From assembly GCA_964434195.1 (NCBI GenBank), contig CAYSUI010000009.1:1-50068 (forward strand): a DNA stretch of 50,068 bases, written 5' to 3'. Position numbers and translations under genes: made by a program. This stretch comes from an uncultured Candidatus Saccharibacteria bacterium. GTDB taxonomy: Bacteria; Patescibacteriota; Doudnabacteria; UBA920. Of this stretch, positions 1-43,226 are shown piece after piece. The notes under the pieces were generated by a model. It saw only the letters and a list, made by a program, of their open reading frames with translations, made no database searches and was not told where the DNA came from. Positions within the stretch are counted from its first letter, which is position 1. Every line of letters starts with the position of its first letter.

Positions 1-55
1 AGGACAGCTGGTTTTCATCCAGCAAATCGGGGTTCGATTCCCCGTATCGCTACCA
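1..55 (+). tRNA. tRNA-Glu(UUC), 3' portion only (5' part lies upstream of window), CCA encoded
   Basis: Anticodon stem gctgg/ccagc with loop ttTTCat; T arm cgggg-ttcgatt-ccccg; acceptor 3' strand tatcgct, discriminator a, cca ending at 55. Confidence 0.85.
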
Positions 56-90
56 AACAAAAGAACACCTACAAAGGTGTTCTTTTGTTG
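56..90 (+). terminator. Intrinsic terminator after tRNA-Glu; stem sequence is shared with the R-repeat terminators
   Basis: aacaaaagaacacct-acaa-aggtgttcttttgtt, about 15-bp stem flanked by A and T tracts. Confidence 0.8.
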
Positions 91-244
91 ATTACTAAGT
101 CCCCCATACGAAGTTAGCCTTCGTTTAAACTCATCTTTAAATCAATCATAATAGCGTTAGGAATAATTGATTGGAAGCCTTGAGGTTTTCTCCATCGACA
201 ATATAAGTTAGAATATCCATGAATATTAGCTATACACATTTATA

Positions 245-1075
245 ATGATAAAATCTGAATCACTTGAAATACAGTATAGAATTGAGGGGTTAAATCTTGC
301 ACTTAATCATATTGAACACCGTGGTCGGACTGAGCGACGTCCAGTACCGTATTTACACAAGGATGATTTTAACTTTAGCAATTTTCTTCCAGACATTAAT
401 CACACCATAAACAAACAAGAAAAAACAAGTAAATTAAAACTGGGTATTGTCGTAGGAACTGGTTCCATACTTTCCATAGCGCCGCATATAAACGTGGATG
501 CATGGCTAGTTCTTGATAATAATGAGTTCGTAATTGAATGGCTACGCTTAACTAGCAACATAGCTAAAGATGCCTCAAGTATTTCGCAATATAGGAATGA
601 CGTATTTTCAAGTACTCTTGCAGAAGAGGCGCGGAACTCAAGAATTAAACCGGAAGAATCTCTTGAATGGGAAATGAGGGCTTTGGGAGAAAGTCATTTT
701 CTTGCCTCAGATGAAAATTACCGAGCAACCTGTGAGGTAATAAACGGAGTACCTATCCTCTATTCCTTAGGGGACCTGTCCGACTCTCAATACACTCAGG
801 AATTATCTGAGGCAATAGAGCACAACGGGGCGGAAATTCATTACGCTAACCTAACCGATATATACGAGTTTAACGAAAAATCTTTGGGAGCCATTTCTAA
901 ACTACCATTCATTAAGGACGTGGCTATTTCGTGGGCTACCAGAGCCTACTCACTGCAAAATCTGGAAAACCATCCTTACAGTCAATTCACAACAGGAATT
1001 TATAATTACAGTGAACAAGCGGCGCAGGCTAACAATTTATTTCGCCTGCAATGGAACAACAGATTCGGACGTTAA
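245..1075 (+). CDS. Hypothetical protein (276 aa), no recognisable motif
   Basis: Long ORF, TAA stop, followed directly by repeat R1 and its terminator. Confidence 0.6.
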   Translation: MIKSESLEIQYRIEGLNLALNHIEHRGRTERRPVPYLHKDDFNFSNFLPDINHTINKQEKTSKLKLGIVVGTGSILSIAPHINVDAWLVLDNNEFVIEWLRLTSNIAKDASSISQYRNDVFSSTLAEEARNSRIKPEESLEWEMRALGESHFLASDENYRATCEVINGVPILYSLGDLSDSQYTQELSEAIEHNGAEIHYANLTDIYEFNEKSLGAISKLPFIKDVAISWATRAYSLQNLENHPYSQFTTGIYNYSEQAAQANNLFRLQWNNRFGR

Positions 1076-1080
1076 GAAAT

Positions 1081-1178
1081 AATAAATCTCGCTTATCAAA
1101 GCCAAAAAAGTTTTCCACCTGTCTCGACTTAGTCTACCAAACAAAAGACACCAGAATTCTGGTGTCTTTTGTTTGGTA
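1081..1178 (+). repeat. R-family repeat copy R1 (conserved ~45-nt core plus palindromic terminator)
   Basis: ataaatctcgcttatcaaagccaaaaaagttttccacctgtctcgacttagtctacc, then a perfect 46-nt palindrome at 1133-1178 (ctaccaaacaaaagacaccaga/tctggtgtcttttgtttggtag). Confidence 0.85.
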
Positions 1179-1186
1179 GCATTAAT

Positions 1187-1208
1187 TAAAGGGTCATGCC
1201 CCCTTTAC
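1187..1208 (+). repeat. T-family hairpin copy (aaagggtcatgccccctt)
   Basis: Near-identical to hairpins at 38307, 39486, 40616 and 41421. Confidence 0.6.
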
Positions 1209-1314
1209 CTTTCCATTATTTATGACAAAATTTTATAAGCTTAGACCCTGTTCAGACTCAAGCAAAACAAAAAACACCTCTGCAATGAAGGTGTTTGTTG
1301 TTTTATAAACTGTA

Positions 1315-2358
1315 TTAGTACGGTCGAATCTTATCTAGAGTCCTGTAACTTAATACAGCTATTTCTGACTTTGATAAATCAGCGTTGTTTGATTGGACAA
1401 TATTGTCTAAGAAATAGCCCCAGGAGGCAAGAATGTCAGGATTAGGTATGCCGTATAAGCCATTTGGACCGACCAAGTAAACGGTGCCTGATTTGTTTAT
1501 AAGAACACCGGTACGATGAGCTTCTGTGCTAGAAGTTATGTTAGCATCACTACCCATCCAAGAAACATCGGCGTAAAGTACATTAGTAAAGTTAAAACCT
1601 AAGTCCTTAAAAACTTTTTCTGAAGTAAAACCAGCTTTTAATCCGTTTGTTATTAAATAACAAGTTCCTTTATCGCTGCCTCTATCAGAGCAAATTATCT
1701 TACCATCTCTTGGTGGAATGAAAGAACCTTTTGCTAAAGCTTTGTCTGCTTCGCTGGCAGTTATCACATCGCTAAATTTATTGTAACTATAAGATAGAAA
1801 AGCGCCTCCTGAAGTGTAACACCATTGTTGTTCTACAAGGGAGACGAAGCAGACAGAACCATCTGGCAAAAGTATGTTTTTACCATAATGAGCATTGGTA
1901 TTTTGTGGCGGAGGGGTGGTTGTTGATGGGTTGAATATTCCGAATGTACCATCTGAAATATCTCCGTCAGCAGAACCATCTGCTTGTACATATATCCTGT
2001 AATAATCTCCAACAATAACTTTGCCATCTGCAGGAATAATCCAATTGTATTGACCACTATTAGCTATATAATCCGAAGTTATATATTGTTGTCTTTCGGC
2101 TTTATCTATTTCTTCTTGGATATAGTATGTATTAGTGTACGGCTGCTTAGCAGCATACTTCAACAACCTTATAGAGACTTTCCCTGTAAATAACCCTGGA
2201 TTCCATTTGACTTGAACTGTTTCGCCTAGACCAAAAGATTCTTGACCGTTGGGACTTATTACCCGGATATAATCTTCGGCACGCGCAAACTGTGGCAGAA
2301 GAAGTAAGTTAGAAAATAAAATTGAAATGAAAACTGCTAATAATACTTTAGGTTTCAT
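1315..2358 (-). CDS. Secreted protein with N-terminal signal peptide and Ser/Thr-rich linker
   Basis: MKPKVLLAVFISILFSNLLLLPQFARA signal-like N-terminus; TTTPPP linker; 347-aa ORF. Confidence 0.7.
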   Translation of the reverse strand: MKPKVLLAVFISILFSNLLLLPQFARAEDYIRVISPNGQESFGLGETVQVKWNPGLFTGKVSIRLLKYAAKQPYTNTYYIQEEIDKAERQQYITSDYIANSGQYNWIIPADGKVIVGDYYRIYVQADGSADGDISDGTFGIFNPSTTTPPPQNTNAHYGKNILLPDGSVCFVSLVEQQWCYTSGGAFLSYSYNKFSDVITASEADKALAKGSFIPPRDGKIICSDRGSDKGTCYLITNGLKAGFTSEKVFKDLGFNFTNVLYADVSWMGSDANITSSTEAHRTGVLINKSGTVYLVGPNGLYGIPNPDILASWGYFLDNIVQSNNADLSKSEIAVLSYRTLDKIRPY

Positions 2359-2383
2359 ATTTTGTCTGGTTTATTTGATTAAA

Positions 2384-2731
2384 TTATACAGCATATTCTT
2401 TCCCTATAACTTCTCTCACTTGTTCTTTAAATCCTGGTAAATGCTCTTTGCCTGTAATATAAACTTGGTCAATAACAATTTCCGGATAGTCATGAATTAA
2501 GACATCTCTAAAGCCAGCCGCTACTTTCCACGGTACATCTGGATATTGAGATTTTAAGTTTTCCGGTAGCCGTTTAACTGCTTCGCCAATTATTTCAAAA
2601 CGTCTAATTACTGCGTCTTGTAAATTTATATCTTTCCTGAATTCTTCTAAAGTCACTTGAGAGACATTCGTAATTATTCTATCTCAAGAATCAATAATAT
2701 CTTGTAGAACCACAATACTATTTCTCGCCAT
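2384..2731 (-). pseudogene. hepT: HepT-like HEPN (DUF86) toxin gene interrupted by an in-frame TGA at 2684-2686
   Basis: ATG at 2731 lies 2 nt after the mntA stop. It reads MARNSIVVLQDIIDS-TGA-DRIITNVSQVTLEEF... The RX4HXY HEPN motif is present (RDVLIHDY). The ORF track only shows the GTG restart at 2656. Confidence 0.75.
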
Positions 2732-2733
2732 AT

Positions 2734-3018
2734 TTAAATGATCCTTATTTTGTCTTTATCAATATCCTGTTTAAATTCTGACCTGACCGCTTCCATCTGT
2801 ACCAAATCGACTTTTCTGCCATCAAGAGCGTCTTGTAAATCCAGTTTAATTTTTACAAACTCAAAAAGTCCATTGAGATTATGAAATTTAACCAAAATAT
2901 CAACATCACTATCAGCTTGAGCTTGTCCTCTTGCAGTAGAGCCGAATACATAGGCTTCAGAGATATTGTACTGTTTAAGTATAGGCTTAGTTTTTTCTCT
3001 AATTTCTTCTATTGTCAT
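2734..3018 (-). CDS. mntA: MntA-like minimal nucleotidyltransferase antitoxin
   Basis: GSTARGQAQADSDVDILV (GSxxRG...DxD NTase motif); 94 aa; immediately upstream of the DUF86 gene. Confidence 0.85.
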   Translation of the reverse strand: MTIEEIREKTKPILKQYNISEAYVFGSTARGQAQADSDVDILVKFHNLNGLFEFVKIKLDLQDALDGRKVDLVQMEAVRSEFKQDIDKDKIRII

Positions 3019-3157
3019 ATTCGTAAATATTTAAAAATATCAGTAGATTCCTTTTCATTATCCCAGTTTTCCTGCATTCCTGCAATTATTGAAGCTTTAC
3101 AGAAGATTGAACTATCGTTTAGATAAAAGCTAAAGATTCAGTTCGTGTAAAGAATAT

Positions 3158-3252
3158 ATAAATCTCCCTTACTAAAGCCAAGAAAGTTTTCCACCTGTCT
3201 CGACTTGGTCTACCAAACAAAAGAACACCTAGCTAGGTGTTCTTTTGTTTGG
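3158..3252 (+). repeat. R-family repeat copy R2
   Basis: Same core as R1. It ends in a perfect 40-nt palindrome at 3213-3252 whose arms equal the tRNA-Glu terminator at 56-90, apart from the loop. Confidence 0.85.
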
Positions 3253-3351
3253 AATTTGAGATGAGCCTTTGTACTCTATGAGATTGAAAATAAAGTAAAT
3301 GTTAACAAACTGATTAAAATAAAAAAACCTAGTCTCGTTTTGACTAAGTCT

Positions 3352-3747
3352 TCAAGTAATAACCCCCATTGGTTCCCAGTTCATTAGAACATGCTGCATC
3401 CCCGGGAATAGACTACCCTTATCGAATTCAGCTTCTAACGATTTTACGTCAGATAAACCTGATACGGATGAACCACTAACTATAAGGGTTCTGGTATGAG
3501 GTCCTGCCGAATCGGCCTCAGGGTATGAGAACCATAAATAATAAGCTCGTTGGGAATGATCCTGATCCTCAAGTAACTTTATGATGTGTATCCGAAAGTC
3601 CTCCGGATTCCCTAACTCCAAACTTCTAATTGTTTCCGATTCGATGGTTCGCCAAAGATCAGGAAGATCAACCTTGACAATAATGTTTTTAGCACTAAAA
3701 TAACCGCTCATTTCCCTGTACGTGCACGAGACAAAGTACTGTGGCAT
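3352..3747 (-). CDS. Hypothetical protein (131 aa)
   Basis: ORF with AAGGAG about 8 nt upstream of the ATG on the minus strand. Confidence 0.6.
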   Translation of the reverse strand: MPQYFVSCTYREMSGYFSAKNIIVKVDLPDLWRTIESETIRSLELGNPEDFRIHIIKLLEDQDHSQRAYYLWFSYPEADSAGPHTRTLIVSGSSVSGLSDVKSLEAEFDKGSLFPGMQHVLMNWEPMGVIT

Positions 3748-3872
3748 CGATGTATCTCCTTGGTGATTTCTATGAAAGATTTAAAAAGAAATATACACGA
3801 AATCGGATCTTTTAACAAGAGTCAGGAACTAGGAAAGCTTTTATGATAAAAATCAATTTCCGATAAACCGAC

Positions 3873-3967
3873 ATAAATCTCCCTTGCTAAAGCCAAAAAA
3901 GTTTTCCACCTGTTCCGAGATGGTGTACCAACAATAACATCGGCATAATTGCCGGTGTTTTTGTTTT
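3873..3967 (+). repeat. R-family repeat copy R3
   Basis: ataaatctcccttgctaaagccaaaaaagttttccacctgttccgagatggtgtacc plus hairpin catcggc-ataatt-gccggtg and a T run. Confidence 0.8.
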
Positions 3968-4011
3968 AAATAAGGTTTGTAATTAGTTTTCCATAGGATT
4001 ATACTTAGTCT

Positions 4012-4248
4012 ATGAATACTGATTTTAAAGAATTATTTGAATATTTTGACCAGCAGTTTGGTGAGCTGAAGGAGCGCATGGGGAATCTTGAAAGTGGCTT
4101 TAGAACTCTTCAGGTTTCAGTCGATAACTATGCAATGAAAGCCGATAACTATTACAAAGAAATGGCAGTGCTTATGCACAGGGTTGAACGCTTGGAAAAT
4201 ATTGTAAAAGAGTTAGCAGAAAAGAATGGTGTTAAGGTAACTTTTTAA
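4012..4248 (+). CDS. Small coiled-coil protein (78 aa), paralogue of 38032..38271
   Basis: Heptad-like sequence. Shares the N-terminal TDF, central SVD and EM, and C-terminal GV blocks with the 79-aa ORF at 38032. Confidence 0.65.
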   Translation: MNTDFKELFEYFDQQFGELKERMGNLESGFRTLQVSVDNYAMKADNYYKEMAVLMHRVERLENIVKELAEKNGVKVTF

Positions 4249-4262
4249 CTTAAAAACAAACA

Positions 4263-4694
4263 ATGGATACTTCAAATTTATCGGAAGAGCAATTAAAATT
4301 TTTGGATTCAAAATCTATAGGAGCTCTTATTCTAGGACCTAATCGTTTTTTTAGCTTAAATAATTTAAGTAAGGAATTTTATAAATCTTTCATACCTGTT
4401 TATTCTATGTTTCGAATGTGGCCACTAGCAATTTCTAATGGAAAACGGATTGCTTGGGAAAAAGGCAATTTTTCCAGCTTCCAAAATTTTCAGAGAAAAC
4501 AGAAACTTATTGATTATGGAGCGTATTTTTATTTGCTGGGTGGGTTTATCGGATTGATATGGGCTTTTATTTCTCTTGCTAGTAAGGTTGTAGGTTTTGA
4601 AATGGGAATTTTATCTTCATTCCTCCTTGGTTGCGTGGGTATATCTGTAATTATTGCTTTCATTATTCACTTTCAAGCACTAGCAAAGAAGTAG
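4263..4694 (+). CDS. Membrane protein (143 aa)
   Basis: C-terminal hydrophobic helices (YFYLLGGFIGLIWAFISL, ILSSFLLGCVGISVIIAFIIHF); 14 nt after the preceding gene. Confidence 0.6.
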   Translation: MDTSNLSEEQLKFLDSKSIGALILGPNRFFSLNNLSKEFYKSFIPVYSMFRMWPLAISNGKRIAWEKGNFSSFQNFQRKQKLIDYGAYFYLLGGFIGLIWAFISLASKVVGFEMGILSSFLLGCVGISVIIAFIIHFQALAKK

Positions 4695-4704
4695 ACAAAC
4701 TTTT

Positions 4705-4799
4705 ATAAATCTCCTTTATTAAAGCCAAGAAAGTTTTCCACCTGTTCCGAGATGGTCTACCAAAACAAAAGACACCGAGTATTCGGTGTCTTTTGTTTG
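4705..4799 (+). repeat. R-family repeat copy R4
   Basis: ataaatctcctttattaaagccaagaaagttttccacctgttccgagatggtctacc plus an approximately 16-bp hairpin aaacaaaagacaccga/tcggtgtcttttgttt. Confidence 0.85.
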
Positions 4800-4800
4800 C

Positions 4801-5648
4801 TTAGCTTTCTAGCTTGATACTTTTTTCAACCAATTTATATAACTCCTCATAACCATGAAGAAAAAAATCTGCTCCTGGGATACCGGCCTTTAATTTACCC
4901 TTATCAATATTACCTGTACTCCAATCGAAACAATCAATTAATATCTTCTCGTTTTCTTCAAATTTTGCTAAATACTCTGACTTTTGCATTTCATCCAGAC
5001 CAGCAATATCTACTACCCTCGATCCTCCTTCATAAATAAGCGAATCAACATCGTATCCTTTCGGTAATAAACCAACGCCTCCTAATGACATAAAAAACGA
5101 ATGGGGTTGGCTTGCAAAAAATTCGGGATCAAATTTGGCATTCCCGTATCTATCAATAACATAAGCACATAAGGCAACGGCTGTTCTACCATTTGCGTCA
5201 CGAAATATGTGATTAAGTCCACTCAAAAATAAAATCGCAGTACCTATTTTTTTTGAAACTTCTAATTTGTCAGTTTGTTTATCTATATTCTGCCTAAAAA
5301 TCTCAAAACCTTCATCAATTTTTTTAGTAAGTCATAATTTTTTGGTAAAGTTAATGATCGTAACTCGACCCCCTGGGCTTGATATATATTGTTTCTGCCT
5401 ACGATTGGAAAATCGGGCCCCGAATAATATGTATCAACAAATACATCACCTTCTATATGCTTTCCCCTTTGACCACTCTCCCCTATTTTATAATTACCTT
5501 CTTTAATGCTTCTATTAAAAATTTGAGCGATCCTACTTATTGGATATTCTTCTAATCTTTCCTTTTCGGCGGCTTGAAGAACCAAATCCCATTTGAAGGT
5601 TGATAGTGAACTATCGAGGTTTTCTGAGTAATGTTTTCTTTCAGTCAT
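4801..5648 (-). CDS. Fic/DOC family protein split into two frames at an A7 run (frameshift, slippage or pseudogene)
   Basis: The C-terminal frame has the Fic motif HIFRDANGR. The N-terminal ORF 5283..5648 has a GAGGAG SD. The two frames overlap only between 5283 and 5334, which contains cta-aaa-aaa-ttg. Confidence 0.75.
5319..5325 (-). promoter_or_regulatory. A AAA AAA heptamer, a possible -1 slippery site or homopolymer error inside the Fic gene
   Basis: Seven A on the coding strand. A -1 shift here joins ...NYDLLKK to IDEGFEIFRQN...HIFRDANGR. Confidence 0.4.
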
Positions 5649-8311: not shown

Positions 8312-9232
8312 ATGCTAATAAAATATCGACGAATTATAAGGCTTTATATAACAGGATTCATAATGGGAACAGCAGATTTAGTACCTGGCGTTTCTGGAGG
8401 CACTGTTGCCTTTGTATCTGGAATATACGAGGAACTATTACAGGCAATTAAGACTGTGAGCGGTACTACTCTTTCATTACTCTTACACGGCAAACTAATT
8501 CAGGCATACAGAAGCGTCCCTTTTCGATTTCTTTTACCTCTGCTTACAGGATTATTTACTGCAATTTTCTCACTTGCTCAACTTTTCACATACTTACTCA
8601 GTAATTATGAACGACTTGTTTGGGCATTCTTCTTTGGCATGGTGGCAGCTTCTACTTACATAGTAGCTAAGCGTATTGTGAAATGGGACGTGCGAGATGT
8701 AGTAATTTTTCTTTTATCAGCACTATTTGCTTATTGGCTAGTTGGCGACCACTTAGTTAGCACACCTCATACTTTGCCGATGATTTTTGCTAGTGGTGCA
8801 ATTGCGATTTGTGCCATGATCCTGCCTGGTATTTCAGGTTCATTCATACTTGTACTTTTAGGTCAGTATGCTTATCTACTTTCTTCAGTAGTTGATAGAC
8901 GCTTCTCTGTGCTTATAGTGTTTTCCGCCGGTGCAGCAATCGGACTTTCATTATTTTCACGATTGTTATCCTGGTTATTTTCGAAACACCATGATATTAG
9001 CGTGGTACTACTTTCGGGGTTCATGCTTGGCTCACTTAGGAAGGTTTGGCCGTTTACGCATGGCGGACAGACCGATTTCCAACATATTGGCGTTTGGGTG
9101 TTAGCTATTGCAGGTGGAATAGTAGTAATTGCACTGGCTCGACTGGACGCACTCAGAGAACGATCTACCGATATTCAAGATAAAGAATTTCGCGATACCC
9201 ACAAAGAATCACTTAAACCAAAAAACAATTAG
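8312..9232 (+). CDS. DUF368 family membrane protein (family linked to undecaprenyl-phosphate recycling)
   Basis: GTADLVPGVSGGTVAFVSGIYEEL and a second PGISGSFIL repeat; polytopic. Confidence 0.8.
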   Translation: MLIKYRRIIRLYITGFIMGTADLVPGVSGGTVAFVSGIYEELLQAIKTVSGTTLSLLLHGKLIQAYRSVPFRFLLPLLTGLFTAIFSLAQLFTYLLSNYERLVWAFFFGMVAASTYIVAKRIVKWDVRDVVIFLLSALFAYWLVGDHLVSTPHTLPMIFASGAIAICAMILPGISGSFILVLLGQYAYLLSSVVDRRFSVLIVFSAGAAIGLSLFSRLLSWLFSKHHDISVVLLSGFMLGSLRKVWPFTHGGQTDFQHIGVWVLAIAGGIVVIALARLDALRERSTDIQDKEFRDTHKESLKPKNN

Positions 9233-32064: not shown

Positions 32065-33807
32065 ATGACTAAGAAAATTCGCACTAGATTTCCCTTGCTG
32101 AAAGGAGAAAAAGGGAAAAATATCCCCAAGGAGAGAATGCAAATTAGAAATCAGTTACTCGAGGAGTTGCGTAAAATTTCTAACAAAGCACTCTTGGATC
32201 TTCAATACTTTCAACCAGAAGTCGGTTGCCTGAATCAATGTCGTTTCTGCAGCCAGGAAGCTGGGACAACAAAGTGGATGCTAAGTAAAGAATCTTTAGA
32301 GGATTTAATTGCGGCTATAAGTCTGCGTCTTAAAGAATCTTCTATTGAACTAGCTTATGGAAGAATCAACCATAGACAGGGTGTGATCTTCCCATACTTT
32401 GATAATGATGTAATGTCATACCCTTATTTGTATGATTACATTCGTTTGATAAAAGAAAACTTAAAGTGCAAAGTCCGCATAGCCACAGTTGGATATTCGC
32501 GCCACAATCATGAACTAACTCAAATGCATGAAAAAATTGCGAATGAGTTTCCAGATGTTTTTGCGGGTATTCGATTTTCTTTCACACCCTACACTTCAGG
32601 TTGGGTTAGTCTGAACGGACTTCAAACATCGAGAGATGAATTTGAACAGGATTTTGCGAATGCGCTTAGTACCTATTTTCCTCTTATGGAGAGAATTGGA
32701 CTTGGCAAGTCTACTGCATGTGTTGAACTAAGGTTTCACCCTAATGTACAGAGATGTGGGGTAGTAGACACCTTTCTTTACAATCATCATGTTATTAAGG
32801 CTGGACCTCACTTGCTTATTCGACAGGAATCCGGGAGCACATCTCTTGAGGTAACTGAGATTGAGTCTATTCATGGAAGAGATGGTATATATAATAAACA
32901 GTCTGTTCCATATTTTTGGCTAACTGACGACATGATGGTTGCCGATACACCCTGGGAAGATACTGTTACCAAAATCCTCACGGGGGATAATGCACTGAAG
33001 CATAAATATAAAGTGGTACCTGTCCACCTTTTTTCTAATGCTGACGGACCTTACTATGCGGCATCTGCCGATTTCCTACCGACCGGTGAATACAAGGCGT
33101 TCCACATTTACCCCAAAACAAGTTCTCGTTCAGTAAGCGGATACAACGATGCAGAGAGATTTCTCTTGAATGCTATACTCAGACATAAACGTGAAAGAGG
33201 TATAGCGCGTAGAGAGACATTCCCAGATGCTACTTGGGCAGATGTTGAAAGTATTGTAGACAAGCTACGGTTCTTGCTTGAAGAAAAAGAGCAATACGAT
33301 GTGAGAGCCGCGCTGCACATTTCGCAACATATTCTGCCAATTGTGGAGAGTTACATACGGTGCTTAAAGGCTTCTGGACTACCACCCGATCTATTCTTTG
33401 ACCCGCGTTTTACGATAGATACCGGTCAAATAGTTAACCAGGGTAGGGCTAAGGAAATCTTTAAAGGCCTTGTTACTAAGGATGAAGAACCTTTGACTCC
33501 AAGGGAAGCAACGGCGTACGGCAATACAAGCGTATCTACTTTAAGAGGTAAGGTATGGCGACTTGCGCCGGTTCCGTATTCGGTGAATAGGGTACTTTCT
33601 GCTTCTAAGGCTGGTGGTAAAAATTTTTCGTCTCAAATTTCAGGACAGATGTCTTTGCAACAACTTAGCGAAAAGACACTGCGACCTTATGATGCAAAAA
33701 CGAATGAACCCTTGCCTCATTTTGTAATTAGCGGATTGGATATAATTTCGGTTTCGCAAAAAACAAATGAGTTAAGTTATCTAAAACCTGGTATGAAAAA
33801 GGAGTGA
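32065..33807 (+). CDS. Radical SAM domain protein (580 aa) with a long uncharacterised C-terminal region
   Basis: CLNQCRFC = CX3CX2C near the N-terminus; AAGGAGG SD; TGA stop overlaps the start region of the next gene. Confidence 0.75.
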   Translation: MTKKIRTRFPLLKGEKGKNIPKERMQIRNQLLEELRKISNKALLDLQYFQPEVGCLNQCRFCSQEAGTTKWMLSKESLEDLIAAISLRLKESSIELAYGRINHRQGVIFPYFDNDVMSYPYLYDYIRLIKENLKCKVRIATVGYSRHNHELTQMHEKIANEFPDVFAGIRFSFTPYTSGWVSLNGLQTSRDEFEQDFANALSTYFPLMERIGLGKSTACVELRFHPNVQRCGVVDTFLYNHHVIKAGPHLLIRQESGSTSLEVTEIESIHGRDGIYNKQSVPYFWLTDDMMVADTPWEDTVTKILTGDNALKHKYKVVPVHLFSNADGPYYAASADFLPTGEYKAFHIYPKTSSRSVSGYNDAERFLLNAILRHKRERGIARRETFPDATWADVESIVDKLRFLLEEKEQYDVRAALHISQHILPIVESYIRCLKASGLPPDLFFDPRFTIDTGQIVNQGRAKEIFKGLVTKDEEPLTPREATAYGNTSVSTLRGKVWRLAPVPYSVNRVLSASKAGGKNFSSQISGQMSLQQLSEKTLRPYDAKTNEPLPHFVISGLDIISVSQKTNELSYLKPGMKKE

Positions 33808-33809
33808 AG

Positions 33810-34928
33810 ATGCTTTTACTGAAGGACTTTGAAAAATACATGAAAAGGAAGGGGTATGCCTGGTTACCAGACCAGGGTTTAGTTTCTACGTCCAGTAGAC
33901 AGTTGTTTAATATAGCTGGAGCAGCACCGCTACTAGCTACTGGGTATCCGCGTGATACTGAAAGTAAACTCGCGGCTTCATCACAAAGTTGTCTGCGAAT
34001 GAGTAGCTTTGATACTGTTGGTACGGAAAACAATAAGCATATTTTTTTCTATATGCTTGGACACTTCTCTTTTTTCCAAAGAGATGAGGTCCAAACCAAA
34101 TACCAAAGTTGCTATGAGGCTATAGAATTTCTGTGTCATGTACTTGGACTCTCAGAATCTAGGTTAAGGGTTTCTACACACCCAGATGATGAAGTTACCC
34201 TTAAGACGTGGGGATTACTAGGCTTGCAAGAGAAACAACTAGAGAGTAAGACTAGTAAACATACTGCGGAATTTATAACGGATAAGAGTGGCTACAGAAC
34301 AAAGGTAGGTTACCAACTTTCATCTGGAAGGGTACTTTACTTTTGGGATTTGGTGTTCGTTCAATTCGACTCACCTAATTTTCTTAAACTCATGCCACAA
34401 ATACTAATGGAGTCTGGTATGTCACTTGACCGCTTGTATACTGTACGAGAGGACAAGGAGCACGATTACGAGACTTCGTATTGGCTCCCCTATCTGCACA
34501 ACTTATCCGAAAGGATGCAAATTCCTGTAGACAAAACAGTTTACAGGATAGCGGACATTACCCAAGCCGCAATTACCCTACTTTCCTGCGGACTTAAACC
34601 CGGACCCAAAAAACAGGAATATGTTCTTAGGAAACTCCTGAGAGAGATTTTTACCCTTACCTATATCCTAAATATCTCACCCGAACACCCACTTGCTTGT
34701 GGCCTGCAACGATCTAGCTTTCTTGCTGGTCGCAAACCTGAGTCGCAGGTAATAACAGACAAATTCAATTTGGAACTAGATGCGTGGAAAAAGGTAATTG
34801 AAAAAGGTAAAACTAAACTGCGAGAACTTATGATTAACCGTACTGCCCTGACTAAGGAGAACAGACGGTTACTAAATGAAGCTTTCGGTTTAAACGACTT
34901 AATAATAGAACACACACTGGCCAACTAA
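33810..34928 (+). CDS. Alanyl-tRNA synthetase catalytic/tRNA-recognition domain paralogue lacking editing and C-Ala domains
   Basis: Ordered matches to AlaRS blocks: LFNIAGAAP, SQSCLR, HIFFYMLGHFSF, WDLVFVQFD, ESGMSLDRL, RIADITQA...QEYVLRKLLREI, LLNEAFGLNDLI. GGAG 5 nt upstream of ATG 33810. Confidence 0.75.
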   Translation: MLLLKDFEKYMKRKGYAWLPDQGLVSTSSRQLFNIAGAAPLLATGYPRDTESKLAASSQSCLRMSSFDTVGTENNKHIFFYMLGHFSFFQRDEVQTKYQSCYEAIEFLCHVLGLSESRLRVSTHPDDEVTLKTWGLLGLQEKQLESKTSKHTAEFITDKSGYRTKVGYQLSSGRVLYFWDLVFVQFDSPNFLKLMPQILMESGMSLDRLYTVREDKEHDYETSYWLPYLHNLSERMQIPVDKTVYRIADITQAAITLLSCGLKPGPKKQEYVLRKLLREIFTLTYILNISPEHPLACGLQRSSFLAGRKPESQVITDKFNLELDAWKKVIEKGKTKLRELMINRTALTKENRRLLNEAFGLNDLIIEHTLAN

Positions 34929-35688: not shown

Positions 35689-35876
35689 AAAAGGTATCAT
35701 ATCCTTTGTTTTTACCATTCCCCTGCTTTTTCAGAATCCCGACCAGATAATGTGATTAAATTATGCAGATTAGGACGTGAAATTTAGTACCTACCTGCTA
35801 GGGATCAAGTTCTACAGCAGGAGTGAGTGGTGGGATGGTATTAGCGAATTAAATTGTCATGCTCCTCTTGCCTTTG
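35689..35876 (+). repeat. S-family repeat copy S1 (most diverged full copy)
   Basis: aaaaggtatcatatcctttgtttttaccattcccctgc ... ttatgcagattaggacgt ... cagcaggagtgagtggtgggatggtattagcgaa ... gctcctcttgcc. Confidence 0.7.
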
Positions 35877-37826: not shown

Positions 37827-37944
37827 GTCCCTCCACCAGCTGGTGGAGGGACGTATAGCTTTAACAAAAACAAAAGAGGGACTTGTTAGCAGCAGGTGTG
37901 AGCGGTGGGATGGTATTAGAAATTCTACGAAGTTCCCCTGTTGA
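37827..37944 (+). repeat. S-family repeat copy S2, starting with a perfect 26-nt palindrome
   Basis: gtccctccaccag/ctggtggagggac then gtatagctttaacaaaaacaaaagagggacttgttagcagcaggtgtgagcggtgggatggtattagaaattctacgaagttcccctgttga. Confidence 0.85.
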
Positions 37945-38031
37945 AAGTACTAACCATTTTTGACTTTAGTTTTTCCCATTGACAGGTATTTATCCTATAC
38001 CCTATGATTAAATGACCTTAATTATATATTT

Positions 38032-38271
38032 ATGAGCGATACTGACTTTGCTCCATTACTTACATATTTAGACGAGAAGTTCCAAGAGCAGGACAAACGG
38101 TTTGATAAAATGGAAACTGATATTGGAGAACTTCGGACATCGGTTGATAAACTTGCTCACCACGTACTATCTTTCCAGCAAGAAATGACTATTATGACTA
38201 TGAAGGTTGGGAGAATGGAAAGTTGGATACAGCAAGTAGCTGCTAAGGTTGGTGTTGAATATAAAGCTTAG
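38032..38271 (+). CDS. Small coiled-coil protein (79 aa), paralogue of 4012..4248
   Basis: Collinear similarity to the 78-aa ORF at 4012; terminator follows. Confidence 0.65.
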   Translation: MSDTDFAPLLTYLDEKFQEQDKRFDKMETDIGELRTSVDKLAHHVLSFQQEMTIMTMKVGRMESWIQQVAAKVGVEYKA

Positions 38272-39361: not shown

Positions 39362-39512
39362 TTATGCAGGGATGGGACGTATAGCTTTAGTGCTCACCGA
39401 AGAGGGACTTGTTAGCAGCAGGCGTGAGTGGTGGGATGGTATTAGAAATCCCACAAAGCTCCTCTTGCGAGGGTGACCTTAGTTTAAAGGATCATGTCCC
39501 TTTTGTTTTTTG
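39362..39512 (+). repeat. S-family repeat copy S3 (contains a 34-codon ATG ORF at 39372..39476) ending in a T hairpin
   Basis: ttatgcagggatgggacgtatagctttagtgctcaccgaagagggacttgttagcagcaggcgtgagtggtgggatggtattagaaatcccacaaagctcctcttgcgagggtgacc...aaaggatcatgtcccttttgtttttt. Confidence 0.85.
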
Positions 39513-40449: not shown

Positions 40450-40641
40450 AAAAGGGAGATTATACTTTGTTTTACCATTCCCCTGCGAAGCTGATCTTCG
40501 GTTATAGTTTTAGCAAAAACAAAAGAGGGACTTGTTAGCAGTAGGCGTGAGTGGTGGGATGGTATTAGAAATTCCACAAAGCTCCCCTTGCGAAGATGAC
40601 CTGGGTTTAAAAAACAAAGGGTCATGTCCCCTTTGTTTTTC
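40450..40641 (+). repeat. S-family repeat copy S4 ending in a T hairpin
   Basis: aaaagggagattatactttgttttaccattcccctgcgaag...aaaagagggacttgttagcagtaggcgtgagtggtgggatggtattagaaattccacaaagctccccttgcgaagatgacc...caaagggtcatgtcccctttgttttt. Confidence 0.85.
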
Positions 40642-41463: not shown

Positions 41464-42015
41464 TCAAGGAGAAATGCCTGTATTACCTTCAATCAGATTT
41501 ATTATGTAGTCAAGCTCAGGGATTCGCAACCGCTGCTCTTCTAATAATTCTTTGGTAAAAAGTTTCTCGTATTCTCTTGCTTCTGATCTTTTCTCTTTTT
41601 TTATATGGATTGATTCAAACTCTGACTTGCACCACTTAGATTTTTTTTCTGTGAATGATTTTCCACCATTCAGGATGGACAGCAATAACGCTTCTAAACA
41701 TGGAGTATTTTCAATAATAATAATACCTCTTTTACGGGCCTCATCTCTGGCTTCCTGCATCTCCTTCTCTGATTTATCGTTATCAACGAAAACCACTTTA
41801 CTATCGAATGCTCCAGGTCTTTTTTGAGCATCCAATACCACGTTTCTAGGAGTACCACCCTTACCTTTACCGATAGTCACGACTACATCACTATTAAAAG
41901 CGTAGAGACCTTTCAATCTTTTTAAAAACATCTCCTCACCAAGCCCCTCGCCAAATACGAGCAATGTTTTCTTTGCAGATCGTGGTTTTTGTTTATATGG
42001 ATCGTTTTGCGACAT
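41464..42015 (-). CDS. RloB-like (TOPRIM/OLD-nuclease-related) protein, partner of the upstream ATPase
   Basis: LLVFGEGLGEEMFLK N-terminus and VVFVDNDKSE...GIIIIENTPCLEALLLSIL, matching the RloB pattern (EGxxE ... D-x-D ... SNPCFElWlL). ATG lies 2 nt after the ATPase stop. Confidence 0.65.
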   Translation of the reverse strand: MSQNDPYKQKPRSAKKTLLVFGEGLGEEMFLKRLKGLYAFNSDVVVTIGKGKGGTPRNVVLDAQKRPGAFDSKVVFVDNDKSEKEMQEARDEARKRGIIIIENTPCLEALLLSILNGGKSFTEKKSKWCKSEFESIHIKKEKRSEAREYEKLFTKELLEEQRLRIPELDYIINLIEGNTGISP

Positions 42016-42017
42016 AT

Positions 42018-43226
42018 TTATAATTTTGGCACCGCACCGTAAGCACCAGCAATATATTTTGTATAATAATTATCATCTGCCCTGACCCCACTCATCTCAT
42101 CTAGTCGCCAAGCTTCACTGACCCCCTTTTCATTCTTTTCTATTAGAATGATCTGGTATTTATCCAATTTACTTAAAACCCTGTGGCTGTGAGTACTAAA
42201 TAAAATTTGAGCATTTTTCGGATTTGTATTTGGCTCCAAAAACAATTCAAATAGACTCATTACCATATCAGGGTGCAAGTTTACATCAAATTCATCTATA
42301 ACTGCGGTACCACCATTCAGCAAAACCTGGAGAATAGTCTTCAGTAACACAAATAACTGTTTAGTGCCTGAGGATTCGTACTGAATAGGTAGGTACCCTT
42401 TATGGCCGTCGAAAGAATGGACTACTTGTACATTTATAGAAAGATCATTTGCTTTCTTCTCTTTAAGGATATTAAACGCTTCCAGGCCAAGATCAAAACG
42501 AGACAATAACTTCTCGGCCTCCTTCTTTATTTGTTCATTGTCGCTGTAAAAGTCTAAAGCTTCGATCAATTGCTGTCCTGCATTGGGCAACAAATGATCC
42601 CCTGCCCATCCCGCCTCTACAACATTTGTCTCCAGGTGATTCCAAAAATTTGCTATTTCCTTACTTTCTCCATGATTTAGTCGTATCGCGATACTCACTA
42701 TACTTGCATTTGTACGAAGTAAACCTTCAAAACCTTTTGGTAAATCAAAGTTTTTTTCATCTAAGATGTACACTTTATTTTCTTCATCCCAAGTCCGTAC
42801 GAATAGTTTTTTACTTGAATAGTTTTCTTTAATCTTGCTTTTTAAGATCAATTCTTCTGATACAATCTTGGAAGCATTTAAAATAAAATTATACGTGTAT
42901 ATCTTCTCTTGGATTTCAAATGTGACACCAAGCTCAGAATTACTATCTTTATATCCATCAAACATACAAGGACGTAAAGGCAACCTAGCTGCAGGATCAC
43001 TATTAAATGAATCAATTATCAACCATTTTAATAGGGGCAAGACTTTTAAAAGATTAGTCTTCCCCGACGCGTTGGATCCTATTACTGTCTCAATCTTTGA
43101 TAGTCGTGCACCCGACAATGATGAAAAATAACCGTGATTATCCGGTGCGTTGTCATTTACCACGAAACTCACGTTCGCGTCTTCCCCAAAGGAGTAGAAA
43201 TTTTTACAATTGAAAGAATGGATCAT
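42018..43226 (-). CDS. AAA_21/ABC-type ATPase of the OLD/AbiLi/AriA class
   Basis: Walker A GSNASGKT, signature-like ESSGTKQLF, Walker B VIDEFDVNLHP, H-loop FSTHS, C-terminal AYGAVP. Confidence 0.8.
   Translation of the reverse strand: MIHSFNCKNFYSFGEDANVSFVVNDNAPDNHGYFSSLSGARLSKIETVIGSNASGKTNLLKVLPLLKWLIIDSFNSDPAARLPLRPCMFDGYKDSNSELGVTFEIQEKIYTYNFILNASKIVSEELILKSKIKENYSSKKLFVRTWDEENKVYILDEKNFDLPKGFEGLLRTNASIVSIAIRLNHGESKEIANFWNHLETNVVEAGWAGDHLLPNAGQQLIEALDFYSDNEQIKKEAEKLLSRFDLGLEAFNILKEKKANDLSINVQVVHSFDGHKGYLPIQYESSGTKQLFVLLKTILQVLLNGGTAVIDEFDVNLHPDMVMSLFELFLEPNTNPKNAQILFSTHSHRVLSKLDKYQIILIEKNEKGVSEAWRLDEMSGVRADDNYYTKYIAGAYGAVPKL

Follow-up and report, generated by a model that had tools for sequence, protein, structure and literature searches.

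Tandem accretion of integrative and conjugative elements (ICEs) and their integrase-less derivatives, cis-mobilizable elements (CIMEs), at one att site is known from Streptococcus thermophilus, and tRNA-linked islands with repeated tRNA 3' ends are known from Prochlorococcus. Here, a 50,068-nt contig of Candidatus Saccharibacteria was analysed over its whole length (the window). The contig begins inside a tRNA-Glu gene and carries, all confined to its first 4.8 kb, four copies of a repeated element named R, between which small groups of genes (modules) are located. The locus is best described as a variant of tRNA-linked cassette accretion with a mechanism that is partly resolved. Judged from sequence comparison, there is about an even chance that the region is an accretion array in which modules were inserted serially at the 3' tail of tRNA-Glu within a lineage of Saccharibacteria. 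These bacteria and their relatives have very small genomes (about 1 Mb), depend on other bacteria as hosts and are just becoming accessible to genetics. A conserved, recognisable boundary element of such modules beside tRNA-Glu would help to locate the flexible gene pool of these bacteria in metagenomes, might serve as a landing site for genetic tools and would allow cassette capture to be studied in the absence of an adjoining integrase.

The locus resembles tandem accretion at a tRNA att site in its apparent entry at a tRNA 3' end, same-direction repeats, integrase-less blocks and strain-variable content. Unlike in such systems, the R modules measure no more than 0-2 kb, the part of the tRNA that is repeated amounts to 6-9 nt only, the 52-nt core of R outside the tRNA-derived part is common to distant genomes, and no integrase-bearing parent was found. 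A classic tRNA island usually has a direct repeat of at least 15 nt of the tRNA 3' end at its far boundary, compared with 6-9 nt in the R repeats, and an integrase at the proximal or distal end was not seen in the loci examined. The tRNA, the R cores and their hairpins are arranged in the window as follows.

1-55, plus strand: tRNA-Glu(UUC), 3' two-thirds, 5' part cut by the window start, ending ...GTATCGCTACCA
56-89: hairpin Ha behind the tRNA, 15-bp stem, loop ACAA, A-tract and T-tract, similar to 3210-3249
1081-1139, plus strand: R1 core, box ATAAATCTC..., linker, box AAAGTTTTCCACCTGTCTCGA, tail CTACCA
1134-1179: R1 hairpin Hb, perfect 46-nt palindrome, 21 pairs, z-score -8.4, spanning the tail and its inverted copy
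3157-3215, plus strand: R2 core, best-scoring copy (profile E=5.8e-20)
3213-3252: R2 hairpin Ha', perfect 40-nt palindrome, 18 pairs, near-copy of the terminator of the tRNA
3872-3930, plus strand: R3 core, with the tail GTACCA
3931-3966: R3 hairpin Hc, imperfect stem of 10 plus 5 pairs
4704-4762, plus strand: R4 core, found by pattern, repeat finder and profile
4763-4798: R4 hairpin Hb', 16 pairs, stem as in the hairpin directly behind tRNA-Glu(UUC) in locus L022

The core pattern TAAAGCCAARAAAGTTTTCCACCTGT (≤3 mismatches) matched the window at 1097, 3173, 3888 and 4720, all on the plus strand, compared with 0.00 matches expected in the shuffled window, which bears out the four direct repeats behind tRNA-Glu reported in a preliminary description of this DNA. 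The repeat finder grouped the four copies in a single 78-nt family whose members are 73-88% identical to R1, and the core profile recovered the same four sites with E values of about 1e-18 to 1e-20. The core profile found no R core in the other 45 kb of the window, and a looser pattern of the 3' part agreed. The arrangement was tiled by independent contigs from eight runs with breaks only at palindrome centres and is not an assembly artefact. Logan contigs of 1.1 kb were considered as circular modules and rejected; they merely break at palindrome centres, which is an assembly effect. For the tRNA, positions 20-71 of the Rfam model were matched by positions 1-52 of the window and the anticodon loop TTTTCAT gave UUC (Glu); ARAGORN misses this gene because its 5' part is cut by the window edge.

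The folds of all four R hairpins produced z-scores of -2.8 to -8.4, and the hairpins of R3 and R4 were listed by the terminator scan. Folding also confirmed the perfect palindromes described earlier for R1 and R2. The earlier contrast with ordinary terminator stems was not supported; the palindromes behave as ordinary two-way terminators (A-tract, stem, T-tract) and similar hairpins, with an A-tract and a CACC stem, follow ordinary genes in L022. The features of an intrinsic two-way terminator (G+C stem, T-run and opposite A-tract) were present in the hairpins only and not in the R core. Positions 50-89 and 3210-3249 were identical at 37 of 40 bases with differences in the loop only, as had been proposed for the tRNA flank and the 3' part of R2; the tRNA-derived bases repeated in the R copies of the window are only 6 nt (CTACCA) and the rest of the shared 40 nt is flank. 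The proposal that each R ends in a copy of the tRNA-flank terminator was correct for R2, but a second hairpin type is found behind both R1 and R4, and a third behind R3. Across the family, the hairpin does not always follow the R tail directly (exceptions in L004, L009 and L016). A derivation of R from tRNA itself, based on three collinear blocks (GTTTTC.., TCGA and CTACCA) compared with the anticodon loop, T-loop and tail of tRNA-Glu(UUC), was too weak and was rejected.

A total of 23 distinct R copies in arrays of 1-4 were found in 16 Saccharibacteria/Patescibacteria loci from genomes and metagenomes. Exact-pattern scans yielded four Saccharibacteria/Patescibacteria assemblies and nine metagenome contigs, and profile and protein-level searches added more. 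Runs X1-X8 include R-bearing populations from wastewater and freshwater. The conserved unit of about 59 nt starts with the box ATAAATCTC(C/T)CTTA, followed by about 12 nt that look variable at the DNA level, the invariant AAAGTTTTCCACCT, a semi-variable G-TCGA-TGG stretch and, in most copies, the tail CTACCA. The link to tRNA-Glu was frequent: in five loci, arrays begin 0.8-1.4 kb behind tRNA-Glu (UUC or CUC) and on its strand, with four copies in the window, one in L002, two in L004, three in L015 and two in L016, always in one direction within an array. In L001, a full tRNA is present but in inverted orientation, and the remaining R contigs are too short upstream to judge tRNA linkage. The earlier interpretation as tandem insertion scars or a cassette array at tRNA-Glu agrees with the comparison of relatives, but R copies are not classic scars of tRNA 3'-end duplication because the duplicated tRNA part is only 6-9 nt and the unit is a 52-nt core that is not tRNA. 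The sequence AAAAAGTTTTCCA is common, in inverted orientation, to R and to hairpin elements at the left ends of some modules. The motif is part of a hairpin family that is widespread in these genomes. With regard to the terminal inverted repeats and target-site duplications of a MITE or insertion sequence, the 5-nt TAAAT flanks one indel only.

Genuine tRNA-Glu fragments were found downstream of R in L001 (24 nt) and L015 (about 14 nt). These are true 3' fragments with their own hairpin (ggtcgattccccgtagcgctacca in L001 and ccgtaacgctacca in L015) and look like classic att scars of a different integrating element with a larger core at the same tRNA. In both loci the fragment forms the tRNA-like 3' tail of a further element of about 130-190 nt, which lies beyond some R copies (L001, about 1530-1505; L015, about 6095-6075; L012, 1580-1745 and 3030-3103). 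A hairpin family of the form AAAGTTTTCCA-(loop, often TTGCTTGAGCAA)-TGGAAAACTTTTTTG, with an arm common to the invariant part of R, occupies in many modules the space behind the first terminator and ahead of the first gene's promoter (L015, 9230-9272 and 7770-7812; L001, 3430-3472; L017, 8137-8180 and about 6277; L023, about 11100; L026, about 8930-8990).

Comparison of junctions showed that hairpins were swapped between R and tRNA-Glu. In the window, R3 is joined to hairpin Hc and a 78-aa gene, while in L002 the same hairpin and gene follow tRNA-Glu(CUC) directly, the homology beginning with TACCA. The 78-aa protein has 90% identity to the product of the gene adjoining tRNA-Glu in L002 and L018-21. 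The hairpin behind the outermost R4 has the stem found directly behind tRNA-Glu(UUC) in the R-less L022 genome, and the hairpin behind R2 is of the type of the window tRNA itself. Overall, three of the four hairpin types behind R were also seen behind some tRNA-Glu, as serial insertion predicts. L002 also has, past its single R, a decayed hairpin of the type found at R1. In L016, the tRNA ends with GGGATCACCA (ATCACCA) and the adjoining R ends with TGCATCACCA instead of CTACCA. The identity of R1 and R2 to copies from other genomes (95-97%) was higher than that to the remaining copies of their own array (92% or less).

Module content at the tRNA-Glu locus differed between relatives, with the site occupied in some strains and empty in others and arrays of 1 to 4 modules. 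In 11.2-kb contigs from runs X1 and X2, the tRNA with Hc is joined straight to R without the two genes of L002; the junction reads ...GTTTTTGTTT|TAAATCTC in an empty-strain contig that was not read directly. With R absent from the other 45 kb of the window and the locus variable between strains, the array interpretation of the preliminary description was not refuted by the condition set for it (R core and terminator behind many unrelated genes, with no variability between strains).

According to the proposed mechanism, a module would consist of a terminator hairpin, genes and an R core in this order, and would join the chromosome in or beside the 6-9 nt tail (CTACCA, often followed by AA) common to R and the tRNA. 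Each insertion would place the hairpin of the newcomer behind the tRNA, which would stay terminated, and would displace the previous terminator of the tRNA outward so that it ends up behind the R of the newcomer. The tRNA would remain intact and ready for the next module, and R would be the conserved right-hand end of a module in the role of an attR or attC-like boundary. The joins would be the work of a site-specific recombinase whose gene lies elsewhere (no such gene was found), and modules would pass through a free or circular form and be added in the proposed order.

A number of observations weigh against this mechanism. No recombinase was found among the window ORFs (open reading frames) by eye or with Pfam on 20 ORFs, which agrees with the earlier statement that the window holds no integrase. 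Inspection of the DNA 5' of the tRNA for an integrase had been suggested, and none was found in the readable 4-10 kb upstream of tRNA-Glu in L018-21 and L022 (Pfam gene tables) or in L015 and L016 (by eye). No free or circular module form was seen, and R had no matches in IMG/VR, the phage collection or the plasmid collection, on which basis a phage or plasmid origin of R was rejected. The shared tail is very short and its co-variation with the tRNA comes from one locus (L016). Certain R copies lack a neighbouring tRNA, namely those of L023 (within 7 kb) and the diverged copy of L024 (within 10 kb). The indel that distinguishes the empty strain from L002 falls in the interval from the hairpin to the first bases of R, flanked by TAAAT, rather than at the tail. 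Within module 4, the window and L002 carry different second genes with no R in between, therefore not all turnover is bounded by R. Finally, a reading frame within R is not predicted by accretion. On sequence grounds, at least two kinds of junction are active, and homology or microhomology may contribute to turnover. A large serine recombinase (Resolvase, Recombinase and Zn_ribbon_recom domains) was identified at 18741-20180 of L025, 8.5 kb from a diverged R on a 186-kb contig and linked to it by position only; no other recombinase was seen close to an R copy.

The reading frame in question lies on the minus strand of R and reads G-R-P-S-R-D-R-W-K-T-F-L-A-L-V-R-E-I-Y (GRPSRDRWKTFLALVREIY-x-x-L), with the inner stretch ...RWKTFLALVREIY.... 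The four copies in the window are listed below.

1082-1138, minus strand: R1 frame GRLSRDRWKTFLALISEIY, conserved, in-frame TTG with GGTG 4-5 nt upstream
3158-3214, minus strand: R2 frame GRPSRDRWKTFLALVREIY, conserved, in-frame TTG two codons upstream with GGTG 4-5 nt before it
3873-3929, minus strand: R3 frame GTPSRNRWKTFLALAREIY, conserved, ATG, GTG and TTG absent in frame as far as the upstream stop
4705-4761, minus strand: R4 frame GRPSRNRWKTFLALIKEIY, conserved, no in-frame start codon upstream

This frame was open in all 23 copies, while the other five frames had stops in 7-18 of 19 copies. The LALVR stretch was kept synonymously (CTC GCA TTG GTT AGA in L014 and TTG GCT TTA GTA AGG in the window), synonymous switches were also seen for Ser (AGT/TCT) and Arg (CGA/CGG), and the replacements were V/I, R/K, E/D and F/Y. 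Codon-position entropy was 10.5 at third positions compared with 7.6 and 7.2 at first and second positions. The ratio of non-synonymous to synonymous changes (pN/pS) was 0.42 compared with 0.98 and 1.49 in the other minus frames; column shuffling gave 0.89 ± 0.27, and 1 of 300 shuffles was as low as the R frame. The residue type was kept for 3-6 positions past the DNA-conserved block, with a hydrophobic residue three positions beyond, and the tails of R1 and R2 differ by a 3-nt indel. Past EIY, the frames extend just 4-22 codons. There was no conserved start codon or ribosome-binding site, and 6 of 17 copies had no ATG, GTG or TTG before the upstream stop. The frame starts right behind the hairpin and T-run that are expected to stop minus-strand transcription, and no promoter-like site was found to the right of it in the window. 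Twelve bases, AGGTGGAAAACT, were invariant even at third positions and recur as an arm of the GTTTTCC...GGAAAAC hairpin family at left ends of modules in relatives; a DNA-level constraint therefore overlies the coding-like one. In the empty strain, of which the contig was not read directly, the R frame would stop (ATT TAA) exactly before the terminator of the tRNA. Taken together, these patterns indicate that the coding signal in R is probably real. The core had been treated as non-coding since no frame has a start codon in all copies; this observation holds, but the conclusion is doubtful with a minus frame that is open in every copy and has such a low pN/pS.

The R peptide gave nothing in Pfam and a chance-level Myb-like match in the PDB (QCRDRWKNYLA, E=1.1), and presumed resemblances to the serine-recombinase GRPR arm and the IS5 N-terminal domain had no search support. 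No full-length parent protein was found by profile search in 5.8 billion proteins or by a HMMER scan of 1.84 billion representatives; the protein searches returned only ORFs of 44-151 aa with N-terminal parts that were translated hairpin or read-through. At the nucleotide level, gathering-threshold and E-value Rfam scans of the window and five loci returned tRNA only and no match of the R core, RNAalifold on 22 R cores produced 0 consensus pairs and single-sequence folds showed the terminator only. R as a known or structured RNA was rejected with no Rfam family and no conserved pairing, and a helix GCCAA/TTGGT was discarded as the linker changes without compensation. A promoter TTGGCT-N17-TATATT on the minus strand of R2 was also rejected; it sits in the non-conserved linker, ATAAAT is a poor -10 and there is no conserved -35.

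Among the alternatives to serial insertion, the locus could be an enzyme-free hot spot in which tRNA, R cores and hairpins serve as portable homology for homologous or microhomology recombination and unequal crossing-over after DNA uptake, for which Saccharibacteria are naturally competent. The lack of a recombinase near the arrays checked, the 37 of 40 bases shared by the tRNA and R2 flanks (enough for unequal exchange), the gene turnover inside module 4 without R and the empty-strain indel flanked by just the 5-nt TAAAT agree with such exchange. We consider it an improbable explanation of the whole locus, as R3|Hc of the window and tRNA|Hc of L002 share only TACCAA, too short for ordinary homologous recombination, and it gives no reason for a 59-nt element conserved across distant lineages or for the single direction of all copies within an array. 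In an integron-type cassette array, R with its hairpin would be attC-like, the tRNA end would be attI and an IntI-type integrase would act on both. Chromosomal integrons and clusters of attC sites lacking integrases (CALINs) share with the R arrays small modules (0.6-2 kb here), a repeated site in one direction, apparent entry at one fixed end and toxin-antitoxin cargo. The R arrays differ in having no IntI or attC fold and in modules that each carry their own terminator hairpin; no integrase adjoins the arrays (window ORFs and flanks of L018-L022), the conserved core has 0 consensus pairs, and the genes lie in both orientations (minus strand in modules 2 and 3, plus strand in modules 1 and 4), in contrast to the single orientation of the short, mostly promoterless integron cassettes. 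The attC sites are imperfect palindromes (R''-L''...L'-R') with extrahelical bases and a crossover in R' (GTT), whereas the R hairpins are perfect palindromes with T-tracts and the recombination point lies beside the hairpin, 5' of it and not inside its 3' side, by fold comparison without an attC covariance model. The integron-type reading is largely refuted and we give it very little weight. Acinetobacter pdif modules and integrative mobile elements exploiting Xer (IMEX) are likewise small recombinase-less modules with short conserved sites and an enzyme presumably encoded elsewhere, but R sites are direct repeats and not inverted XerC/XerD pairs. A chromosomal dif coincides with the GC-skew switch; GC skew was negative on both sides of tRNA-Glu in L018 with no switch at the locus, so the dif/Xer route is unlikely and was rejected; no dif-like sequence was recognised by eye, with no dif pattern search run. 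A generic terminator module behind many unrelated genes and with no link to mobility is least credible of all. The hairpins are terminator-like both ways and related ones follow ordinary genes in L022, but the R core occurs nowhere else in the 50-kb window, R2 and R3 are not behind plus-strand genes and the locus varies between strains; the idea is refuted for the R core and holds only for the hairpins.

The reading frame leads to two further readings. R could be a small gene for a minus-strand micro-protein of about 30-45 residues, possibly with a plus-strand antisense RNA ending at the hairpin in the manner of a type I toxin-antitoxin locus, of which the copies travel with, or stabilise, neighbouring accessory genes. 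The long direct repeats (LDR) and QUAD repeats of E. coli, first described as intergenic direct repeats, were later recognised as the type I toxin-antitoxin loci Ldr/Rdl and Ibs/Sib, and R resembles them as a repeat of about 100 nt in several, partly tandem copies with a terminator on one strand and a short frame on the other. The frame open in every copy with its low pN/pS (matched by 1 of 300 shuffles), the synonymous nature of the 'variable linker', the residue type kept beyond the DNA-conserved block, the 3-nt indel between R1 and R2 tails and the in-frame TTG with GGTG in both all suit a small gene. Unlike in Ldr/Rdl and Ibs/Sib, R has no conserved start or ribosome-binding site, its peptide is charged and not hydrophobic or membrane-like, and R ends in a tRNA tail and bounds variable genes. 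The position right behind a hairpin and T-run with no promoter-like site to the right also speaks against expression, no RNA runs were among those holding the R region, and the tRNA-like tail, L016 co-variation and hairpin swapping are left unexplained; a small gene thus appears unlikely. Integration of the SSV (Sulfolobus spindle-shaped virus) type, with attP inside the integrase gene, would similarly leave a start-less coding fragment abutting a tRNA-derived core at the integrated edge. This split-gene model was rejected, as no full-length protein with the motif was found among the 1.84 billion representatives and no ORF was found to run into the antisense of the tRNA.

The other reading, which is tentative and less likely than not, is that R is a Patescibacteria-specific cassette boundary, a site of about 59 nt combining a crossover point in the tRNA tail with a start-less segment of 19-22 codons that may be under protein-level selection. 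If so, the segment would produce a micro-protein by an unusual route or belong to a gene that becomes complete only while a recombined or free form transiently exists. Together with an enzyme whose gene lies elsewhere, such a boundary would amount to integron-like gene capture in ultra-small bacteria with a tRNA gene as dock, and a start-less protein-like frame, if real, would bear on the maintenance of micro-ORFs or split genes.

The genes carried by the four modules of the window are as follows.

245-1075, plus strand: module 1, 276-aa orphan protein, no Pfam/NCBIfam family
1315-2358, minus strand: module 2 gene 1, 347-aa protein, hydrophobic N-terminus, putative signal peptide by eye
2384-2731, minus strand: module 2 gene 2, HepT toxin gene, interrupted; listed ORF from GTG at 2384-2656
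2734-3018, minus strand: module 2 gene 3, MntA nucleotidyltransferase antitoxin (Pfam Polbeta and NTP_transf_2; NCBIfam MntA)
3352-3747, minus strand: module 3, 131-aa orphan protein, own terminator at 3353-3323, no family
4012-4248, plus strand: module 4, 78-aa gene (ORF list), previously described as a putative coiled-coil protein
4263-4694, plus strand: module 4, 143-aa gene (ORF list), previously described as a putative membrane protein

The 276-aa and 131-aa orphans and the MntA/HepT pair named earlier were recovered from the ORFs, Pfam and NCBIfam, and no window module protein other than MntA/HepT had a family in Pfam or NCBIfam; the match of the 347-aa protein in Pfam was weak and sub-threshold. 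The exact 276-aa protein was present on Logan contigs from several runs. HepT matched its Pfam family with E=1.4e-21 (profile positions 15-120) and NCBIfam HepT agreed. An in-frame TGA at 2684-2686 (minus strand) is codon 16 after the ATG (2731-2729) and leaves a truncated ORF from the GTG at 2656; the HepT toxin is probably inactivated and MntA is intact. Among relatives, L016 carries two MntA/HepT pairs (with Pfam confirmation in the window pair only), and translations inspected by eye showed a methyltransferase in L014, a BrnT/BrnA-like pair in L013 and orphans. By its predicted products, the cargo is of the kind commonly carried by mobile accessory DNA. Within modules, promoter-like sites and separate terminators were found.

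Right behind the R4 hairpin, adjacent ORFs of 121 aa and 141 aa were found at 4801-5648 (minus strand). The 141-aa ORF begins at the Fic motif HIFRDANGR with a weak Pfam match (E=0.002) and the 121-aa ORF had no match; the two may be one Fic/Doc-type gene split in two. Just upstream of tRNA-Glu, a G+C-rich stretch of about 120 nt was present in L002 (6440-6560, minus-strand view) and L022 (9850-9985), which resembles a structured RNA and had no Rfam match at the gathering threshold in L002.

Further into the window, a second, intergenic repeat family named 'Q' of about 110 nt was identified on the plus strand with a partial copy at 35815-35844 and full copies at 37854-37962, 39380-39488 and 40503-40611. 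A GGGTCATG(T/C)CCC hairpin follows three of the four Q copies (Q2-Q4), and one of the same family sits right behind R1; sites of the GGGTCATG family are 38301, 39480, 40610, 41281, 41419 and 1187-1207. Q has an open plus-strand frame (...EGLVSSRxE(W/R)WDGIRNxTK...) that in Q2-Q4 terminates at a TGA ahead of the hairpin. The fold predicted for Q on three copies has 29 pairs, and Q had no Rfam match. Behind Q2 lies a 79-aa paralogue (38032-38271) of the 78-aa gene of module 4, and Q may be a second array of the same general kind. In addition, a candidate defence or abortive-infection module of an AAA_21/AAA_15 ATPase (402 aa) and an RloB-like protein (183 aa) was located at 41464-43226 (minus strand). 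Finally, a 374-aa protein similar to the alanyl-tRNA synthetase catalytic core (tRNA-synt_2c, E=5.5e-32) is encoded directly behind a 580-aa orphan at 32065-34928 (plus strand).

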